DNA of 64,000 bases from Somniosus microcephalus (Eukaryota). The notes under the pieces are model-generated. The model was given only the letters and a program-made list of their open reading frames with translations, was not told where the DNA came from and did not search any database. Positions 41,392-63,155 of the stretch are shown here, piece by piece (position 1 is the stretch's first letter; each line of letters starts with the position of its first letter). The DNA is taken from assembly GCA_052327205.1 (NCBI GenBank), contig CM126220.1, positions 39,804,001 through 39,868,000 of the forward strand, written 5' to 3'. The position numbers were made by a program, and so were the translations under genes.

Positions 41392-41529
41392 CTCATTTTG
41401 AAGCTTCTGGTTGTTCAGCCTGGACTCTTTCAATTCTACCAAAGTTTCAGTCTTCTGTTGGTCCAGTATATTTTTTTCCTTCATAACCTGCTCTAATGTC
41501 TTTCCAGCCTCTTCAGCTTTTTTGGAAGC
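41392..41529 (-). CDS. CLIP1: CLIP1 exon, 138 nt, phase 0-0 (ASKKAEEAGKTLEQVMKEK...QKLQNE)
   Basis: tttttag|GCT ... GAG|gtaaga; similar to human AAQTAEDAMQIMEQMTKEK...KLQNE, with 7 extra aa. Confidence 0.92.
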
Positions 41530-43364
41530 CTAAAAATACAAAAAAGTGTCCTAGTGTGAAATAAATGTTTAAAGTTTCACTGAAACAGGGAAATTCTGAA
41601 AGTTACTTAAAACACTTCTTGCATGTGGACAGATTACATTAATTGATGTCTTGCACATAATGTAATCCTGACACTTGAAAAATAGATGGTGGAAATTTGT
41701 CATGCTAGTTTTATTTTTAGAAATTTTAACCATATTGTTTTTGTGCTGAACCTGTATTTTCACATTCCATAGAGTCATGTCGAATGCTAGTCACCATTAC
41801 CGTTAAATACTCTTTAAAATTCTGCAGAAAGTATATGCAGCAAAATCATACATTTCCAATGTGTCAGATCCAGTTTCATGCCAAACACGCCATTGATTTT
41901 TTAAAAATTTAAATAATCAACGTAGGGAAAACCAAAGCTAAAATTCACAGACATTAGAAACTGCCAACAAGCCAACTCACCTTGTGAATTACAAAGAGAA
42001 AATTATTTTGAAGAATTAGACATTAAATTATGTTTTGAGGATAATTAAAACATTGTCTGCCACATATTACTTTGTTGCCAATTTGCGGTATTCATTTAGC
42101 TTGTTTTAAATACAAAGCACAATTTGGAATTTTTATTAGTAGATTTCGCTATTAAATTTCAAAGGACTAGCTTAAATGTACAACCTCACATTCTTTGCCC
42201 ACCAGTTTTCTTCAGAACATAGTATGCTTCCATGGACACTGGCACCCCTCTGGTGTTTTATCAAGTGTTCATTCTTCATGTGTGAGCTGAGATGGTGAGT
42301 GTCCACATCTATTCAACCACAGGCGCGGGGAAGAAATCACGGCTGATAGTGATCCTGACCTCGCATCTTTCTCATGCGCATCCACTGTCCACCAGGTGTC
42401 ACTGAATAGTGAACAGGAGTGGAAACCCTGGCGAATATCCCCCCCTTCTATAACTACTCCTATTACAACAACTTGCAATTATAAAACATCTTAAATATAG
42501 AATAACGTTTCAAGGTGTTTCACAGAGAAGAAATAACAATTCACTACTTCGAAGTACAGTAGTTCGTGAGTGAAACATATGGAGACATTTCTTTGGCACT
42601 CCATAAGTGCAAGCCTTTCTTTTCTCCCCTATTCCAGAGCCACTTAAACAGTTGTAGTCGCAAACCAACTACAATCAGTGAACTCAGCCCAGATCATGAT
42701 CAAACCTAGGAGCTTCCTGGTCTGTATGGTTGAGTACAATGCATTCACTCACTCAATAGTTTACACTTGTATATTTCTGCCTAATGGCTTCAAATTGGTT
42801 TTGCCTTTGTTAAAATTAGCTGTTGGCAGTTTCATTGTGGATGTGTGAAGTTTTAAGATTTTAGAAATAATTGCATTTTGTTTAAAACACAAAATTTTAA
42901 AAGAAAATCAGGATGAATTTTTTTTAAATAACCAACATTTGTTGAGGATAAACAATCTGTTAAATTTGAGAACATGTAAAATAGTCCTTTTGGTAAACTT
43001 GAACAGGACTAAAATGAACAGAAAAATCTAAACCTTTTCTGTTTTAAAGCATACTTAAACCTTCATTTTATCCACACCCTAGAAACAAGAATTCTAACTG
43101 CATATAATGCAAATTAATTCAGGAAAAATGAGAAACAGGACTTTTATAATGAATATAATTACCCGTGCAAAATGCCCACACCATTTATTGGAGTGACAAG
43201 CCACAAAAATCATTTCCCAGAATTAATGTAATTGAAAGCATAGTTGACAAACTGTGTTAATAGAGCTGATCAAAAAAGTTCAAAACCAAACCGGTTAGTG
43301 CACTCATTAGTAAACAAAAGTGCCCATGACTTTCTGGATTTATCTGAATGCTTATATTTGGTAC

Positions 43365-45650
43365 CTCAATCTTCTCTGATAAAGTAATATTCTGATGAAC
43401 CTGAAGATCTTTTAATTTGGAAGCAAGATCCTCTTCATGTTTCAGCGAAAGCTCCTTCTCACATACCAGTTGCTGGAGCTTTGCTACAGTTTCTCCCTGG
43501 TCTTGAGCAGAAAGAGCAGCCTCTTCACGTAACCTGCAGAGGGATTCAGCTAGCCCGTCCTTCCCTCTAACGAGCTCTTCTTTTTCTGTATGTAGTTTCT
43601 GTACTGTTGCCAGTAAATTATCTTTCTCTTCCCATAGCTTTACCCGATCCAAGTCGGACACATCCTGGCGACTGCGAAGTTCATCCAAGAGTCTCAAACT
43701 TTTTGATTGTGAAGCCTGGAGCTCTACTTTTTCTTTGGTTACGATATCAAACTCCTTCTTCAGCTCTTCAACACTGGACATCAGCCAATTTTTCTCAGCT
43801 ACTAAGTCTTCTTTCTCACTAGCAGACTTCTTTTGTTCAGTATCAATGACCTCTTTCTCTTTTACTAGCAAGTTTTTTTCTGAAAGTAGTTCATCATTTT
43901 TAGCTTTAAGAACACCCATTTCTTTCTGCAACAGCTGGAAATGACTTTCAAGTTTTGAATGAGCCATAATGAGAGTCTCTTTTTCCATTTTTGCTGCATC
44001 CCTTTCTTGTATTAGTTGGTTTTCAAATACTCTCACCTGTTCATTCAATTTATTATATTTTTCCTCTAATTCCACCCTCTGTGTAATAAGATTTTCTTTT
44101 TCAGAGCACTGTTCCTGAAGTTCAGCTGCCAGTCTCTGCTTCTCCTGCAACAAGCAAAGTCTCTCTGAATCCACAATCTTTTTGCTGTTCTGAATCTCAT
44201 CCAAAAGTGTAGACAAACTTGATTTTGAGACCTGGAGCTCTCCATTTTCTTTGGCCAATTTATCAAGTTGTTCCTTTAAGAACTCAACGTTGCCAAGGAG
44301 CTGATCCCGTTCTGCAGCTATGGCTGTATTTTCAGAGACTACCTGCTGTTGCTTTGATTTAAATTTGACTAACTCGTCTGAGAGAGATTCATTTTCTGAC
44401 AACTGCACATTGCTTTTTGATTCCAAGGTCTCCTTCTCCTTTTGTAAAGATTCACACTGGGTTTCGAGCTGTGACTGCCTCAGCAAAAGTGAGCCTTTCT
44501 CTGTTTTTAGAGCATCTTTTTCTTCACTCAGCTTCTTCTCAATGATGGCCGCCTCCTCAATTGATTTCTGCAGCTTTGCAGTCAACTCCATTTTTTCCTT
44601 AGCAAGTTCGTCCCTTTCTACAGTTAGTTTTCTCTGAGACGTAGTTAGCTCTTCCTTCTCTTGGAGCAGCTGGGCACGTTCAGAGTCTGTTACCTCCCTA
44701 CTATTCGTGATCTCATCCAAGAGTTTTGACTGGCTGGATTTTGAGGCCTGAAGTTCTGCATTTTCCTTCATACATGTTTCTAGTTCTTTCTTCAAAAGAT
44801 CATGATTATTCTGTAGTTGATCCCTTTCAATAATGATAGTTTGCTTTTCAAAGATGGTCTTCTGCAAACATGAACCAAGATCGCCCTTCTCTTTCTCAAG
44901 AGTTTCATTTTCAGATGCAAGCTCATCACTTGCCGATTTCAACAGAATTTTCTCCTTTGCTAAATGTTCACCTTGAGCTTCGAGCTTTGAGTATTTTAGT
45001 AAAAGAGAGTCTTTTTCCACCATCAGACCATCTCTTTCTTTCACCAGCTTCTCAAGAGCAATTGCTGTCTCTTCACGTGACTTGTGGAAATTTTCGGTAA
45101 TCTTGTCTTTTTCTTTTGTAAGTTCCTCTCTTTCTGTAATCACTTTCCTGTGGGCCGATAACAACTCTTCCTTTTCTTGAAGCAGCTGTGCTCGTTCACA
45201 TTCTGTTACTTTGCTGTTCATCTCTACTTCTCCCAGTAGTTTACTTAGATTGGATTGCGAGACTTGGAGGGCGTCATTTTCTTTGGTCAACATATCAAGT
45301 AGCTGCTGCAACTGTTTGATTTCCATGAGAAACTGGTCTTTTTCAGTGGCTAAAGCATCCTTTTCCAGGCCAAGTTGTTGCTGATTACACTCAAAATCTT
45401 GCCTTTCTTTGAAAAATGCTGTCTTTTCCAACTGGAGTGCCTCATTCTTTGATTCTAACACTTGCTGCTCTTTCTGCAGGGAAATATACTGTAACTTCAG
45501 CTCTGCAAGTTCAGAGAATATGGACTCTTTCTCGGATTTTAGTGCATCTCCTTGCTGGATCATCTGTTCTTTATCCCCCTTTAGAGCTCTTATATCCTCT
45601 GCTATTTGCTCATACTGAGATTTGGCTGATGCTAGCTCATTGGTTAAAGA
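43365..45650 (-). CDS. CLIP1: CLIP1 giant (probably alternative) exon, 2286 nt / 762 aa coiled coil with a 172-aa internal repeat
   Basis: Polypyrimidine tract plus tctgaag|TCT acceptor; GAG|gtacca donor; uninterrupted E/K/L-rich ORF (track ORF 43257..45563); phase 0-0, so it can be skipped in frame. The donor position is inferred. Confidence 0.85.
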
Positions 45651-46399
45651 CTTCAGAATTTAAGTGGGGAGAAAAGGAAAACAAAAACATAGTCAAGCAG
45701 GCAAATGAAAACAGCATGGATTAAAGACAATACAAAAGGTAAAGTGTGCTGCTCAAGCACAAAATAAAAACACAACTGTCCTTGGATTTCTCAGCAGATT
45801 TATGGAGGAATGACAGTGCGCTGACCTAGATCACAGTGTTCGAGTAAAACTAAAAAAATCTACCATAAAGTTTGGTGTAACAATCATTCTTTATAAACTG
45901 TAAAATCTAAGGGAACAGCATTTATATAACATCTTGTCACTTCTCTCTGAAACACCTCAAAGCACTTCACGCCACAAATTATTTTGCAATGTCAGCAATG
46001 TTTTTGTACTTGGCATAAAAAAATTGAGATGTGGTACACCAAATGATCAATATCAGATTTTACAGTAATTCTGCTGCCCTTTGAGATGCTCAGAGTACAG
46101 TCTATTAGGAAAGGTTGTGTAATACCGTACAATTTCGAACACATCACAGCTCCGTTTGTAAATGTTGGCCTGTGTAGAATGTGTTCTCATTTAAAAAAAT
46201 GGAAGGGAAGATGGGAAGTGTGTTAAGCATGACACTGCACTGACTACACCATAGATAAGGAGTTTTGCTTGAATCAAAGATTGATTGCTCTTTAAAAGGA
46301 GTTTTTAATCAGGAGAGAGTAGAAATCAAAAGGAGCATTGCCTCACAACAGACTGACAAGCCAGGTCAGAAGCACTTTTTCTCATCTTTATATTCAAAT

Positions 46400-46745
46400 C
46401 TCTCGGTCTCACCCCTCCAGCCCTACAACACCTTAAGAACTTGGTGTTCCTCCAACTCTGGCCTCTAGTGCTTCCCGTACTCCCTCCAACCCACTGTTGG
46501 CAGCCATGTCTTCAGCTGTCTAGATCCCAAGCTCTGGAATTCCTTCCTAAACCTCTCCGCTTCACCACCTTCCCTCTCCTCCTCCTTTAAGATCCTCTTG
46601 AAGCCCAACTCTTTGACCAAGCTTTTTGTCATCTCGACTAGTATCTCCTTCTTTGGCTCAATGTCAATTTTTATCTGATTATGCTTCTGTGAAGCACCTT
46701 GAAGTTTTTCCAGCTTAAAGATGTTATATAAATGCAAGTTGTTGG
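46400..46745 (+). mobile_element. L2-like LINE 3' end
   Basis: ctccagccctacaac...ctctttgaccaagctttt...tatataaatgcaagttgttg. Confidence 0.8.
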
Positions 46746-46774
46746 TGATATAGAAAAGGAAAATAAAGCCCAGT

Positions 46775-48195
46775 GGACCGGATTTTGCTGTGAAAATAAC
46801 GGTGAGATTAACAGCGCTCACCGGCATTTACATGCAGATTGGACAGCAACTTCCAGCGAGCGCACATGCTCAGTTAATCTGGAAGTTGCTGTCAAAATGC
46901 GCTGCCCCTCTAAGCTGCGCGAAAACGCATCTCGCCATCTGGCTCCCCATTCAAATGTATTGAACAGCGTGAAGTTTCTGTACATTGTAGATACAGACTA
47001 AACTCGCCACAAAAAGTTGTCAACTCATTCCAGTCTAAGTAGCCTTTTTAACAGCGTGATAAGTTTAATTACTGCCAAATAACCTCTCTGGTACTAAAAA
47101 TTAAATTTAACAAGTGTGGGGTCTCATTCCTTCAGATTTTAATTATTGTTGGAGTTTTTTTTAAATTGAAATTAAAAAAAAAAAAGTTTGTCTTTTATTT
47201 CTCCTCTTAATCCAATCTTTCTTTCCCTCTCTATTTCGCTTTCTGTATCTGATTTGACAATAAATTCACTAATCTAATTGACACTTCTTGGTTCAGACAC
47301 TGCTCATTGGTTAAGGAGATACATAGGGGGGGGGAGAAATTTATTATAGCACTGTTTGGGGTGCTAACTTTTAAAAGTTGAAAAAATTAGCGCCAGGTGC
47401 TAATGTTTCTCAACGTTTAAAAATTTGATTTCGCGCTCCAGTAAGGAAGTGGAGCGCTAAATCAAGCTCTCCACTTCCTTCCTGGAGTGCAACAAGCGGT
47501 AGGTGTGCAGCGCTGCCACGTTGGAAGGCTCCTTCCCTCCCTTAAAAGGGAAGGGCCATCGCTGCAGGCTCTGCAAGGGAAAAGCGACTTACCTGGTCCC
47601 CACCGGCAGCCGCAATCCGGCCTGATCAGCCCGATGCACTGCTGCAGAGTGCCGGGCTGATTGAACGCTGGGGGAAAAAAGGAAAAAAAAAAAAACCCAG
47701 AAAACGAGCATTTGATTATTTTTTCCCTACCTCAGCCACCTTGCCTTTATCACCCCCGAAGAGCCCAGCCTCCCGATGAACGTCTCCTGCAGCTGCCGGT
47801 CTTGTCACCCGGCGATGCTGCAGGGGGCGAAACCGAAGTTAGTGTCCGGGTGGATGACGTCATGATCTCCAGGCAAAGGAAATCGGGGCGCAACGCCATA
47901 CCGCTGCTGCAAACCTCCCGCCGAATTTAGCAGGAGCCGATATTCTCGCTGAGCCTGGGTGGCAAGTGGTTAGTGCCCTGTTATCACCCTTCAGAGGCGA
48001 TAACGGGAGGCGCAAAGATACCCAATTTCTCCCCCATTGTTGCTTGCCCTGTTCTCAGGTCCCAGATGCTCTGTAGAGGGCGGCGTGCCGTTTGGATGTT
48101 TAGCTGACAGCAACTTGCTGTGCAAAACCCCATAAAAAAACCTATGGGCAAGTGCAAGTCATCGTTCGTTCGACGCTCACAGCAAAATACGACCA
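46775..48195. mobile_element. Nested non-autonomous TIR elements (outer 46775-48195; inner about 47326-48035), possibly PIF/Harbinger-like
   Basis: Outer ends gaccggattttgctg / cagcaaaatacgacc; inner ends gggggagaaatt / aatttctccccc; both CpG-rich. Confidence 0.6.
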
Positions 48196-49221
48196 AATGA
48201 CTATGAGTCTATATGGTATGATGACAGAGCATCAGTCTATAATTTGAATTTACTTTTTGACCAGTGTTCCAAAGCAAGCATTTATAATGTTAATGTTAAA
48301 GGCCCATCTAAATTTGTGCCTGTTCAAATTGTTAATGCCAAAAGCCATGATGGAGAGTGGCAACTCTGCAAAAAAAGGAACGTGAATTTGTTCCTGATAA
48401 ATCAGCTGAGGAACCCGAAGACTTTCTTGTACCAAATGACAAGTGTTTCTAATTTTCTGCAAGAGCATTGCAAACACAAAGGATTATTATAAAACATGAT
48501 GAATGGAAAACGAAAGCAAGAAATAAATCCACAGGGTGCAGATGAACAGCCAACTAATAAGAATTGTCTTACTATTGCTGCTACAAATGCAAGTTTCTCT
48601 AAAATAAAAGTGCATAAATTAGCATATTAAACAAAGTAACAGCAAAAATAGCTATTCTTATGTGGCATCTACTATTCTTGTCATGAAAGATAAATAAATA
48701 AAACATGTACTATATTTCCTAACAAATGAAATTCATGTTAGATAATATGCGTATTTGGGAGAGGCAAGACTGAGCAGATCACAGATATTTGCCACCAGCC
48801 TTTATTAGCTGTGCTTTGGTACATTTATTCTAACCCTAAGAATTCATCTTGTCCACGAGTCTCAAATGGTGCGAGCATTTATTCACTGAATATAGCATTT
48901 AAGTACTGAGAATGTAGTTAAAATCAGTTCTTTTAAGAGAATTATTGAACTCCAGACACTGCTATAGTAGTAAATGAGCAAGTAGTTCTATTATCAACTA
49001 TTAACTCGTGTAGGATACAAGGCTGCCTGCTGCATATTAGTAATTTGCTGCTGATTCACGAGCCATTTAATCATAAAAGTGTAGATGTGCAATAGAAGTT
49101 GCCTCAAAAAGCCAAAAGGTGCAATACAGGATTAATTCCGTGTATATTTACCATTTACTACCCAAACAGAACCATTTTTGTCTAAGAGACAGCAAGTAAA
49201 TATATATCATGAAAACAAAGG

Positions 49222-49908
49222 GTTATAGACAGGCTAAGTGAGTGGGCAAACATTTGGCAGATGGAGTATAATGTGGGAAAGTGAGGGGCTATCCACTTTG
49301 GTAAGAAAAATAAAAAAGCAAATTATTTTTTAAATGGAGGAGATTACAAAATGCTGCAGTGCAGAGGGACCTGGGGGTCCTCATGCATGAAACACAAAAA
49401 GTTAGCATGCAGGTACAGTAAGTAATGAGGAAGGCAAATGGAATGTTGGCCTTTATTGCAAGGGGGTTGGAGTATAAAAGCAGGGAAGTCTTGCTACAAC
49501 CGTACAGGGTATTGGTGAGACCACACCTGCAGTACTGCATACAGTTTTGGTCTCCTTATTTAAGGAGGGATATACTTGCATTGGAGGCAGTTCAGAGAAG
49601 GTTCACGAGGTTGATTCCTGAGATGAAGGGGTTGACTTATGAAGAAAGGTTGAGCAGGTTGGGCCTATACTCATTGGAGTTTAGAAGAATGAGGTGATCT
49701 TATTGAAACATATAAAATACTGAGGGGGATTGACAAGGTAGATGCAGAGAAGATGTTTCCCCTCATGGGAGAATCTAGAACTAGGGGGGCATAGTTTCAG
49801 AATAAGGGGTCGCCCATTTAAAACAGAGACGAGAAGGAATTTCTTCTCAGAGGGTCGTTAATCTGTGGAATTCTCTGCCCCAGACAGCTGTGGAGGCTGG
49901 GTCATTGA
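49222..49908 (+). mobile_element. CR1-like LINE 3' fragment lacking its tail
   Basis: [17 protein letters not shown]...[18 protein letters not shown] motif. Confidence 0.88.
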
Positions 49909-49909
49909 A

Positions 49910-52900
49910 GCAGCTGATTGGGTGAGTACGGCTAGGTGAGTATTTATACTACTCTATAGTTTGACAGTTAAGATTAATAGTTTATAAAATTTAGAAGGTC
50001 TTAATTTTTGTGGTTATAGTTTCTAAGGTCCCTGTTGTGTATCAGGGAGTGCGAGTAACCAAGGGCCCTTGGGTATATCATTTAATTGTTGTGTAATTAG
50101 TGGTATTGATTTGATTTAATTTAAATTAATTAAAGGGTAAGTCATGGCAGGACAGCTCGGCCCTGTAGCTTGCGCCTGACATCGTGGATAACACGTTTAG
50201 GGAGTTGGTCACACCGCAGGTAAAGGCTGCACAGGCAGGAAGGGAATGTAGTAGGCGCAGGCAAGTACTGCAAGGGTCCCCTGTGGCCATCCTCCTCTCA
50301 AACAGATATACCAATTTGGATATTGTTGAGGGAGATGGCTTATCCGGGGAAGGCAGCAGCAGCCAACTTCCTGGCACTGTGGGTGGTTCTGCTGCATAGG
50401 ATGGGAGGAAAAAGAGCAGGATAGCTATAGTGATAGGGGATTCTATTGCAAGGGGAATAGATAGGCGTTTCTGCGGCCGCAAACGAGACTCCAGGATGGT
50501 ATGTTGCCTCCCTGGTGCAAGGGTCAAGGACGTCTCGGAGCGGCTGCAGGGCATTCTGGAGGGGGAGGGTGAACAGCCAGTTGTCGTGGTGCATATAGGT
50601 ACCAACGATATAGGTAAAAACAGGGATGAGGTCCTAAAAGCTGAATATAGGGAGATAGGAGGTAAATTAAAAAATAGGACCCCAAAAAGGTAGTACTCTC
50701 AGGATTGCTACCAGTGCCAAGTGCTAGTCAGAGTAGAAATAGAAGGTTATTTCAGATGAATACGTGGCTATAGGAATGGTGCAAGGGGGAGGGATTCAAA
50801 TTCCTGGGACATTGGAACCGGTTCTGGGGGGAGGTGGGACCAGTACAAACTGGATGGTTTGCACCTGGGCAGGACCGGGACCAATGTCCTAGGGGGAGTG
50901 TTTGCTAGTGCTGTTGGGGAGGGTTTAAACTAAAATGGCAGGGGGTTGGGAACTTATGCAGGGAGACAGAGGAAATGGAAGCAAGGATAGAAGCAAAAGA
51001 CAGGAAGGAGAAAAGCAAAAGTGGCAGTCAGAGAAATCAAGGGTTTAAAATCAAACATGGCCACAGTAAATAATAATACTAAAAGGTCTAAGAATGTTAA
51101 AAAAACAAGCCTGAAGGGCTTTGTGTCTTAATGCGAGGAGCATTCGTAATAAGGTGGATGAATTAGCTGCGCAAATAAATGTAAACGGGATTACGGAGAC
51201 ATAGCTCCAGGGTGACCAAGGCTGGGAATTCAACATCCAGGAAAGACTGGCAAAAAGGAAAAAGGAGGTGGGGTAGCATTGCTAGTTAAAGAGGAGATTA
51301 ACACAACAGTAAGGAAGGATATTCGCTCTGATGATGTGGAATCTGTATGGGTAGAGCTGAGAAATACCAAGGGGCAGAAAACGTTAGTGGGAGTTGTATA
51401 CAGACCCCCAAACAGTAATGCCGAGGTTGGGGATGGCATTAAATGGGAAATTAGAGATGCGTGCAATAAGGACACAGCAGTTATCATGGGTGACTTTAAT
51501 CTACATATAGGTTGGGCTAACCAAATTAGTAACAATACTGTGGAGGAGGAATTCCTGGAGTGTATACGGGATGGTTTCCTGGACCAATATGTTGAGGAAC
51601 CAACTAGAGATCAGGCGATCTTAGACTGGGTATTATGTAATGAGGATTAATTAGCAATCTTGTTGTGCAAGGCCCCTTGGGGCGGAGCGATCATAATATG
51701 ATCGAATTCTTTATTAAGATGGAGAGTGAAGTATATGACTCAGAGACTAGGGTCCTGAATTTAAATAAAGGAAACTACGATGGTATGAGGCGCGAGTTGG
51801 GTAGGATGGATTGGGGAATGTTACTTGAAGGGTTGACGGTGGATAGGCAATGGCAAACATTTAAAAAGCGCATGGATGAACTACAGAATTTGTTCATCCC
51901 AGTTTGGCACAAAAATAAAACAAAGAAGGTGACTCAACCGTGGCTAACAAGGAAAATTAGGGATAGCATAAGATCCAAGGAGAGGACATATAAATTGGCC
52001 AGAAAAAGCAGCAAACCTGAGGATTGGGAGCGGTTTAGAATTCAGCAAAGGGATTAATTAAGAGGGGGAAAGAGAGTATGAGAGTAAGCTTGCAGGGAAC
52101 ATAAAAACTGACTGTAAAAGCTTCTATAGATATGTGAAGAGAAAAAGATTGGTGAAGTCAAGCGTAGATCCCTTGCAGTCAGAATCAGGGGAATTTATAA
52201 TGGGGAACAAAGAAATGGCAGACCAATTAAATACATACTTTGGTTCCGTCTTCACAAAGGAGGACACAAATAACCTCCCAGAGATGTCGGGGAACATAGG
52301 GTCTAATGAGAGGGAGAAACGGAATGAAATCAGTATTTGTAGGGAAATGCTGTTAGGGAAATTGACGGGATTGAAGGCCGATAAATCCACAGGGCCTGAT
52401 AATCTACATCCTAGGGTACTTAAGGAAGTGGCCCCAGAAATAGTAGATGCATTGCTGGTCATTTTCCAAAATTCTATACACTCTGGAACAGTTGCCATGG
52501 ATTGAAGGGTAGCTAATGTAACCCCACTATTCGGAAAAGGTGGTAGAGATAAAACGGGGAATTATAGACCGGTAAGCCTGACATTGGTAGAGGGGAAAAT
52601 GCTAGAGTCCATTATAAAAGATGTAATAGCAGAGCACTTGGAAAACAGTGACAGGATCGGACAAAGTCAACATGGATTTACAAAAGGTAAATCGTGCTCG
52701 ACTAATCTATTGGAATTTTTTTGAGGATGTAACTGGTAGAATAGATAAGGGAGAACCAGTGGATGTGGTGTATTTGGACTTTCAGAAGGCTTTCGATAAG
52801 ATCCAGCATAAGAGATTAGTGTGTAAAGTTAAAGAACATGGGATTGGGGGTAAGGTACTGACTTGGATAGAGAACTGGTTGGCAGACAGGAAGCAAAGAG

Positions 52901-53940
52901 TTGGAATAAATGGGTCTTTTTCCAAGTGGCAGGCAGTGACTAGTGGGGTACCGCAGGGATCGGTGCTAGGACCCCAGCTATTCACAATATATATTAATGA
53001 TCTAGACGAGGGAACTAGATGTAATATCTCCAAGTTTGCAGATGACACAAAGCTGGGTGGGCATGTGTGCTGTGAGGAGGAGGTCGAGAAACTCCAGTAT
53101 GATTTGGACAGGATGGGCGATTGGGCAGATGCAGTATAATGTGGATAAATGCGAGGTTATCCACTTTGGTGGCAAAAACAGGAAGGCAGATTATTATCTT
53201 ACCAGCAATAGATTGGGAGAAGGGGAAGTGCAACGAGACCTGGGTGTCCTTGTGCACCAGTCGCTGAAGGTAAACATGCAGGTGCAGCAGGTGGTTAAGG
53301 CGGCAAATGGTATGTTGGCCTTCATAGCGAGAGGATTCGAGTACAGGAGCAAGGATGTCTTGCTGCAGTTGTACAGGGCCTTGGTGAGACCACACCTCGA
53401 GTATTGTGTGCAGTTTTGCTCGCCTTATCTGAGGAAGGATGTTCTTGCCCTGGAGGGAGTGCAGCGAAGGTTCACCAGACTGATACCTGGGATGGCAGGA
53501 ATGACATGAGGAGAGATTGGGTCGATTGGGCTTATATTCACTGGAGTTTAGAAGAATGAGAGGGGATCTCATTGAAACTTATAAAATTCTAACAGGACTA
53601 GACAGACTAGATGCAGGAAGGATGTTCCCGTTGGCAGGGGAGTCCAGAACCAGGGATCACAGTCTAAAGATAAAGGGTAAGTCATTTAGGACAGAGATGA
53701 GGAGGAATTTCTTCACCCAGAGAGTGGTGAACCTGTGGAATTCTCTACCACAAAAGGCAGTGGAGGCCAATTCATTAAATATATTCAAGAAGGAGTTGGA
53801 TATATTTCTTAAGGCTAAAGGGATCAAGTGATATGGGGAGAAAGCAGGGACAGGGTACTGAATTTGGATGATCAGCCATGATCCCATTAAATGGCGGAGC
53901 AGGCTCGAGTGGCCAAATGGCCTACTCCTATTTCTTATGT
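49910..53940 (+). mobile_element. Near full-length CR1 LINE: ORF1 with SGNH esterase domain, ORF2 APE endonuclease + RT; inactivated
   Basis: IGDSI..CLPGA..HIGTND (esterase); VYRPP, MGDFN, SDHN (APE); [33 protein letters not shown] (RT); stops and frameshifts; intact 3' tail. Confidence 0.95.
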
Positions 53941-54089
53941 ATTATTCTATAGGCATGGTCTCAAATCAGAAAATAAACCACAAAATTTAAACTAAAACTG
54001 ATTTTTTTTTTTTTATAAATAAAGAGCCCAGGAACATCTTGAATACAGACAAGTAGACAATAAATTACATCATGTAGTTGCAAGAATAC

Positions 54090-54305
54090 CTGGACCTGTT
54101 CCACTTGCTTCTTCAGTTCTTCTACCAGTTTTTCCCTTTCTTTATTGTCCTCCTGAGAGCTCTTTAGTGTTTGCTTGGTTTCCTGTAGGTCCTGCTGGAG
54201 CTCTTTAACTCGAGTACCATTGTTAGCATTTATTTCTGAAAGGACTTTCTCATGACTGCTTTGCAGCTCCTTATTGTGTACGCTGTGCATCTCCACCTGC
54301 CTTTG
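54090..54305 (-). CDS. CLIP1: CLIP1 exon, 216 nt, phase 0-0 (QRQVEMHSVHNKEL...KKQVEQVQ)
   Basis: cccacag|CAA ... CAG|gtattc; 72 aa, the same length as the recalled human EKKMETS...QADKAK segment. Confidence 0.9.
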
Positions 54306-62210: not shown

Positions 62211-63155
62211 CTTGCTACCTTCAGAAAGTTTTAAAGCTTCACTGATTTTCATTTGTGACTCAATGGCCACAAGTGTCTCTTCAAGTCTTTTGATTTCCTC
62301 TTTACCTTGTGCCTCAACTTCTTGCAGCAATTCATATTCCATTACCTTCTGTTCAGCTGCTGTCACTTTAGCTGTTAGGGCCTCTACAATTTGTGCCTGT
62401 TCATTGCTCTTAGCCTGCAACACTTGCAGTTCCTTTACCTTCAGTTTAGTGTCCTGTAGCTTTGTCAAGGTCTCTTCCATCTCTACCAGGTGTTGATTTG
62501 TAGCAGATTCCAGTTGAGACTTCAGAATTTCTATATCTTTCTCCTTCTCCGCAGTGACTGCTAATAGCCGAGATTTTAGATCTTCAGTCTCTTTTACGTA
62601 GGCAGACTTTTCGAAATCTTGCTTAATTTTGATATTCTCAAGTTCCATTTGATGCTCTGTTTTAAGCTTTTCAAAGGTACTCTTCAGCTCTAGAAGCTCT
62701 GTAGTTTGGGGACCTGCTCCTTTACTGAAAGATAACTTGAGTTCTTCCATGGCTTGCTGATGAGATTCAATTGCAGACTCCAGCTTACATTGCCATAGAC
62801 TAATAACCTCCGCGTTTTCAATATTGGCTTGATCCAATTTGGACTTAAGAGTCTCATTCTCCTTGGATATTTTTTCACTGGCAGCTTGCAGTTGTTGAAG
62901 TACCTTTTGGTGAGCTTTTTCTGAAGTTTCAAGTTTTTCTTTCAATGTATTAAGTTCATTTTGATGTTCTTTGCTCATTGTTGCAAGTTTATCTCGCATA
63001 CAGTTGATTTCTTCCAGTAGAGGTGAGGCACTGTCCATACCACCTGAACCTTCAGTGCTCATGAGTCTATGTCGAAGCTCCGAGACCTCCTTCGTGCGTG
63101 ACACAAGATCCCTTTCTAGATCCATAATCCGAGACTTCTCAGATACTGTGGCCAC
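62211..63155 (-). CDS. CLIP1: CLIP1 exon, 945 nt, phase 0-0 (VATVSEKSRIMDLE...LSEGSK)
   Basis: Acceptor tatag|GTG, donor AAG|gtttgt. The ORF 62148..63155 translation matches the large CLIP1 coiled-coil exon (SHQQAMEELKLSFSKG, QHLVEMEETL). Confidence 0.96.

Follow-up and report, generated by a model that had tools for sequence, protein, structure and literature searches.

Within a 64,000-nucleotide stretch of the Somniosus microcephalus genome (contig CM126220.1; hereafter the window, with positions counted from its first letter), a preliminary description of the sequence noted a very large candidate exon of CLIP1, composed of coiled-coil repeats 172 residues in length, and proposed that it might encode a splice-switchable molecular ruler. 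This raises the question of whether such an exon is indeed used in CLIP1 transcripts, how widely it is shared among vertebrates, and whether its periodicity measures out a fixed distance or reflects some other property of the CLIP-170 rod.

A giant cassette exon in CLIP1

Searches with tblastn using three CLIP1 proteins recovered CLIP1 exons in order along the minus strand from 63155 down to 4080; the gene at this locus is CLIP1 (CLIP-170). A Pfam scan of the homologues displayed a pair of CAP-Gly domains and, at the C terminus, zinc knuckles, parts that here would fall outside the window. In this map the giant exon (43365..45650, minus strand) lies between the CLIP1 exons at 54305-54090 and 41529-41392. 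The upstream flanking exon (54090..54305, minus strand) was delineated by tblastn, RNA reads and a reading of splice sites and phase, and the downstream one (41392..41529, minus strand) by tblastn, RNA contigs and reads, and the same reading. A large constitutive rod exon of 315 residues (62211..63155, minus strand, ends approximate) provided a control and material for trees.

The giant exon is 2286 nt long and in phase 0-0, and its stop-free translation (45650-43365), which sits within an 800-codon open reading frame, comprises 762 residues with no proline, a computed mass of 87.6 kDa and about 4.4 units of 172 residues. It is preceded by a pyrimidine tract with a non-consensus AAG at its end (45651..45675, minus strand, read from sequence), and followed by the donor GTACCA (GAG/GTACCA; 43359..43364, minus strand), which is non-consensus at +4 to +6; the splice-site reading thus bears out both the phase and the AAG acceptor that had been assigned to it. 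The frame stays open past the donor until a stop at 43257, and reads beyond the donor are close to zero. In the intron that precedes the giant exon lie broken endonuclease and reverse-transcriptase frames antisense to CLIP1 (window 50700-53930, plus strand), which by their motifs we take to be a LINE; it draws thousands of RNA reads from its other copies. With 37.8% adenosine the giant exon lies above the >33% mark used for such exons in Ilik 2024, but this is non-discriminating because the neighboring exons have 33-43%.

RNA evidence was drawn from six of 24 listed sequencing runs, which were picked for holding the exon and bear no tissue label; none of the listed runs that hold the stretch is recorded as RNA, and that X1, X3 and X10 are RNA is a guess made by software. 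In X23 and X24, raw RNA runs under the same species label, exon reads are one-stranded and the introns near-empty. X24 contains a skipping joint (41528-54089; 6 reads, 4 starts), and X23 an inclusion joint (41528-43364; 2 reads with 1 start, possibly a single molecule). The same inclusion joint is seen in X10, from a relative, where a 2344-nt contig carries the whole exon flanked on one side by the downstream exon and on the other by the last part of the upstream exon, with 180 differences and 0 gaps relative to the exon described here; the AAG acceptor is used in this contig, whose loose end corresponds to the end of the 54090 exon. Likewise, X1 yielded one skipping contig and one whole-exon contig, X3 a whole-exon contig, and X20 a skipping contig along with exon fragments. 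The giant exon is a true cassette, both included and skipped, with own-species junction reads few in number (2 and 6). The proposal that it is splice-switchable, which would have fallen with an exon never spliced in or constitutive, therefore holds: skipping is seen in the X24 joint and an X1 contig, and inclusion in the X23 joint and the X10 contig. Contig depth over the exon relative to its flanks, a rough measure, is 84.7/511.8, 31.6/83.9 and 42.5/89.1 in three relatives, and in the two own-species RNA samples the exon is covered about 3-6x with the flanking exons of similar order. As inclusion appears substantial in all of these, the exon may not be spermatid-restricted in these fishes, though contig depth gauges inclusion poorly and the choice of runs favored those with the exon.

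Orthology and genomic distribution

Two protein searches recovered long proteins with an orthologous insert (32 and 64 matches), all with the CLIP1 Pfam set or name. The holders are predicted CLIP1 isoforms of about 2050-2370 residues from reptiles, birds, mammals, frogs and ray-finned fishes, these RefSeq-type entries being automatic models without analysis. The giant-exon product aligns gap-free with the mouse and dingo inserts at 33-36% identity. In the aligned models the mammalian insert occupies the same junction and starts with SLTYLLTSAKK, as the preliminary description had expected. The mammalian insert is 756 residues, or 2268 nt, matching the human exon length in Supplementary Table 1 of Ilik et al. 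(PMC10901741); the human exon was compared by length, and mouse and dingo were used for sequence.

Unrooted trees of 16 rows, built from the constitutive 315-residue exon and, by a quick method, from the giant exon, agree in their main groups and both place this species outside the tetrapods and outside the teleosts; the constitutive-exon tree also sets it apart from the entire ray-finned group, a placement that suggests a cartilaginous fish. By these sequence comparisons the giant exon is orthologous across jawed vertebrates, including the insert of the mammalian long isoforms.

To understand the distribution of the unit we searched the whole 6.4-Gb genome: a single 172-residue unit gave 4 matches, all at the CLIP1 giant exon, and elsewhere the whole exon recovered only weak coiled-coil matches of 14-29% identity. 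At C12:231740155-231753173, several long open frames (467-841 residues) lie close together and match the 150-350 portion of the giant-exon translation weakly but repeatedly; the single-unit search gave no match to this cluster, which is probably another repetitive coiled-coil gene. A Pfam scan of the giant-exon product retrieved 0 families; PF27241 appears in a precomputed listing for most long CLIP1 proteins and is absent from the local Pfam scan. A search of the ESM Atlas with the insert recovered generic coiled-coil clusters only. A search for jawless and invertebrate relatives with residues 275-375 yielded 4 matches among 760 candidates, all of them ray-finned CLIP1, which is weak evidence on the age of the exon beyond jawed vertebrates.

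Repeat architecture

Self-comparison of the 762 residues revealed that the top similarity lag is 172 (35.6% identity), followed by 344 (32.1%) and then 21 (20%), and self-comparison of the DNA gave top lags of 516, 1032 and 1548 nt. Because a heptad pattern by itself lifts identity at lags of this kind, we shuffled residues within heptad classes: the 210 identical pairs out of 590 observed at lag 172 compare with 99.6±7.4, and a maximum of 125, in 2000 such heptad-preserving shuffles. Neither 82 nor 86 residues ranks as a sub-period within the 25 strongest self-similarity lags, and Tandem Repeats Finder, run with a period limit of 500, did not detect the repeat.

Four copies of a conserved motif mark the period. 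Copy 1 (45141..45320, residues 111-170), copy 2 (44625..44804, residues 283-342), copy 3 (44109..44288, residues 455-514) and copy 4 (43593..43772, residues 627-686), all on the minus strand, have mean identities to ten amniotes of 28%, 52%, 40% and 37% respectively, making copy 2 the best kept. Positions 45181, 44665, 44149 and 43633, earlier noted as equivalent, fall on the second base of codons 157, 329, 501 and 673, in steps of 172, so that the codon check, the lag analysis and the shuffles together uphold four copies spaced 516 nt apart despite their divergence. The repeat had been called exact; this holds for its period and not for its sequence, because the copies are 26-45% identical to one another. 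A fifth copy in the downstream constitutive exon, entertained by eye and from weak profile matches, is not supported: it scores -18, against 64-83 for the real copies, and a null of 3880 windows has its 99th percentile at -25.5 and its maximum at -6.2.

The reading of 172 as 24x7+4, namely heptads with one stutter per unit, is likewise supported: the leucine register shifts by +4 once per unit (steps 1-5-2-6), and hydrophobicity has its strongest period at 3.510, equal to 172/49. Hydrophobic columns in stacked units of six species place the stutter at unit columns 58-76. Together with the register steps they locate it in unit 1 at 45045..45101 (minus strand), with equivalents in later units at 44529-44585 and 44013-44069 and, less clearly, at 43497-43553 (minus strand). 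The exon would have arisen by internal tandem duplication of one 172-residue segment before these lineages split.

Conservation across vertebrates and the ruler hypothesis

A ruler hypothesis can be phrased as follows: 172-residue units, computed at 25.1-25.8 nm each, or about three tubulin dimers, space out binding sites, and both the period and the copy number are selected. We examined the spacing of the motifs in 48 of 81 long CLIP1 proteins, keeping one per species or source with isoform duplicates dropped, by means of a profile built from this species, a snake, rabbit and squirrel. In favor of a ruler, the spacing is 172/172/172 in 12 of the 48 (this species plus 11 of 30 amniotes), and in all of them but rabbit 110 residues separate the beginning of the exon from copy 1. 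Copies 2 and 3 are separated by 172 in 27 of 30 amniotes and in 12 of 13 named ray-finned fishes, where scores run from 12 bits up and some are weak. Frogs retain a distance of 344 from copy 2 to copy 4, and in the frog proteins P0017, P0020 and P0081 a segment resembling the stutter region of copy 1 is present twice, 158 residues apart (15-20 bits), with the insert 152-158 residues longer; they thus probably carry an extra 158-residue part-unit before copy 2, a gain of a nearly whole unit that, weak as the scores are, is in keeping with a selected copy number.

Against it, indels that are not multiples of the heptad are fixed in chicken (171/170/172), pheasant (172/170/170), tamarin (172/172/171) and rabbit. 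Spacing also deviates in Sturnira (165/172/165) and shrew (172/165/172), the Peromyscus model being truncated, and in the passerines it is 162/172, with copy 4 scoring under the threshold in all 13 of them. Four motifs are recognizable in most mammals, the snake, eagles and fowl, whereas in frogs and teleosts copies 1, 3 and 4 have decayed and copy 2 is the sole strong one. The exon encodes 762 residues in the snake and one eagle, and the second eagle shares a length of 756 with five mammals; over 34 proteins, leaving out three rows with poor anchors, anchor-to-anchor estimates of insert length range from 729 (tit) to 920 (Hyla), with 879 in the bichir and 743-868 in teleosts.

The control exon counsels caution about the ruler: the constitutive rod exon aligns gap-free to this species in 8 of 18 species, with two further mammals out of register, and the giant exon in 3 of 18, its alignments containing several indels of 7, 14 or 56 residues. 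A length free of gaps thus belongs to the CLIP-170 rod as such, and indels are tolerated in the giant exon at least as well as in the constitutive one. Furthermore, CLIP-170 is located at microtubule plus ends and the regular densities of the manchette have an 8-nm spacing, as stated in the sections consulted of PMC12326331 and PMC13373224. The case for a molecular ruler is thus weak, and we consider a selected period and copy number unlikely. Still less probable is a narrower version, in which a four-unit ruler in the spermatids of jawed vertebrates fixes the geometry of plus end, perinuclear ring and dynein and in which changes in the units (+158 residues in frogs, -20 to -35 in passerines) track sperm-head shape.

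Beyond spacing, the survey upholds the other half of the proposal, an ancient insert with a conserved period and open frame: in addition to the full 172 spacing in 11 of the 30 amniotes, every lineage sampled has an open frame of about 730-920 residues. Some features of individual gene models may be recorded here. The mammalian exon ends 6 codons earlier than in this species and the snake (18 nt; window 43365-43382), and as eagle models (P0034/P0036) show both exon ends, it appears that amniotes have come to use an internal donor. Isoforms predicted for fur seal and deer mouse (P0046, P0078-P0080) stop within or just past the giant exon and lack zinc knuckles; these are possibly tail-less forms or annotation artefacts. 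The frog models P0017 and P0081 reach about 3100 residues, with a Sec1-family domain (PF00995) after CLIP1, presumably through fusion with the neighboring VPS33A gene model.

A probable splice-switched extension of the rod

Within the insert, identity to amniotes is concentrated at the core heptad positions d (0.54), g (0.47) and a (0.42), with b, c, e and f at 0.21-0.27. Copy 2 has six exposed positions (b, c or f) that 18-19 of 20 sequences, chosen by hand to range from fish to mammals, retain. Such a pattern would suit a spacer with a single docking site better than a ruler with four equivalent marks; copy 2 is thus a candidate docking site, and its conservation could also be structural. 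The last 139 codons have about 27 non-synonymous differences to X10 over 327 sites and 9 synonymous over 90, a ratio of about 0.8 that rests on small numbers (36 of the 180 differences), which suggests that copy 4 is under weak constraint.

As to length, the 762 residues compute to 111-114 nm, in line with the roughly 110 nm originally estimated. Electron microscopy gave about 135 nm for the placental form of CLIP-170 and 95 nm for the brain form (Lansbergen 2004; PMC2172020, relevant sections), so that the long form, when extended, would be about 1.8-fold the 135-nm figure. Here the long form is known from gene and RNA, and its coiled-coil fold is predicted.

We consider it probable that the exon provides a splice-switched rod extension of loosely fixed length, likely for spermatid use, which is the best-supported mechanism. 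In one splice outcome a CLIP1 cassette exon with weak splice sites is left out; in the other it is retained and would lengthen the rod by about 110 nm of probably uninterrupted coiled coil, placed between the head that binds microtubules and the tail that binds dynactin and LIS1. Within this added stretch, repeat copy 2 would offer one likely docking site for a partner. By analogy with mammals, the long form likely serves elongating spermatids. In the parts consulted of the respective sources, the human and mouse giant cassette exon of 2268 nt is reported as SAFB-repressed in cells and included during spermiogenesis (PMC10901741), CLIP-170 as concentrated in the perinuclear ring of the manchette (PMC13373224), and CLIP-170 knockouts as having irregular manchettes (review, PMC12123824). 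The 172-residue period would survive mainly because indels break the heptad register, and the long form would act as a tether whose length is set loosely and not precisely. On the best reading of the sequences, this would be an ancient extension, splice-switched and of roughly 110-135 nm across vertebrates.

A different role for the same rod would be in control of activity: CLIP-170 folds head-to-tail with the tail inhibiting the head (PMC2172020, as far as consulted), and an insert placed in the rod between these ends could alter the autoinhibitory folding and so retune microtubule and dynactin binding, with no distance to be spanned. As a much shorter insert could suffice for this, and as the retention of copy 2 is left unexplained, we are doubtful of such a switch. 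That the repeat is a tolerated relic, a trace of old duplications whose frame is open because it is sometimes translated while its length and motifs matter little, would accord with divergence faster than that of the constitutive exon (35% versus 50% identity to snake), the ratio of about 0.8 in copy 4 and the drift in length, but is very unlikely given an open frame that is retained at 730-920 residues in every sampled lineage and is proline-free in all 12 of 12 inserts counted, the core-biased conservation and copy-2 motif, and regulated inclusion in two mammals (PMC10901741, in the sections seen).

The present exon is the orthologue of a published one, and a new kind of system is not established by it. 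The human and mouse giant exon is now extended to a lineage outside the tetrapods and ray-finned fishes, where the cassette splicing is shared. To this is added the anatomy of the insert, with four 172-residue units, one stutter in each and one strongly kept motif; the openly readable literature yielded no description of the 172-residue repeat, the fish orthologues or the long protein. As Clip1 knockouts remove all isoforms together, the unit and copy-2 anatomy would make a possible sperm-head-shaping role of the long isoform dissectable.

Relationship to known systems

Long-period coiled-coil rulers and rods such as the myosin-II rod, tropomyosin and CCDC39/40 combine a long repeat over heptads with regular discontinuities. 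Compared with these, the CLIP1 insert varies by lineage in length and copy number, and any partner lattice for it would be hypothetical. The predicted long CLIP1 isoforms share with this exon the orthologous insert itself.

The closest known system is the CLIP1 giant exon of Ilik et al. 2024, who defined giant protein-coding cassette exons and listed CLIP1 beside ANK2 and ANK3 (PMC10901741, in the portion consulted). Gene, junction and cassette behavior are the same and the sequences orthologous, with 756 residues there and 762 here, the exon described here being 18 nt longer, as in the snake and one eagle model. As the published 2268 nt equal 756 codons, the mammalian insert length found here, the giant CLIP-170 exon falls, together with the analogy to the giant ankyrin exons, in a published category, and its presentation as little-characterised is not supported. 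SAFB control and spermatid inclusion are known from human and mouse alone, and the consulted parts of that paper contain no mention of a repeat or of non-mammalian orthologues.

The SAFB-repressed giant exons of ANK2, ANK3, MAP2, MAP4, MAPT, NIN, MPRIP and NASP are likewise single in-frame exons of several kilobases and, as in CLIP1, mostly enlarge cytoskeletal proteins in one tissue (PMC10901741, same portion). The CLIP1 unit is confined to one locus in the genome, and the likeness drawn here to giant exons of the ANK2/ANK3/MAP2 type is one of architecture.
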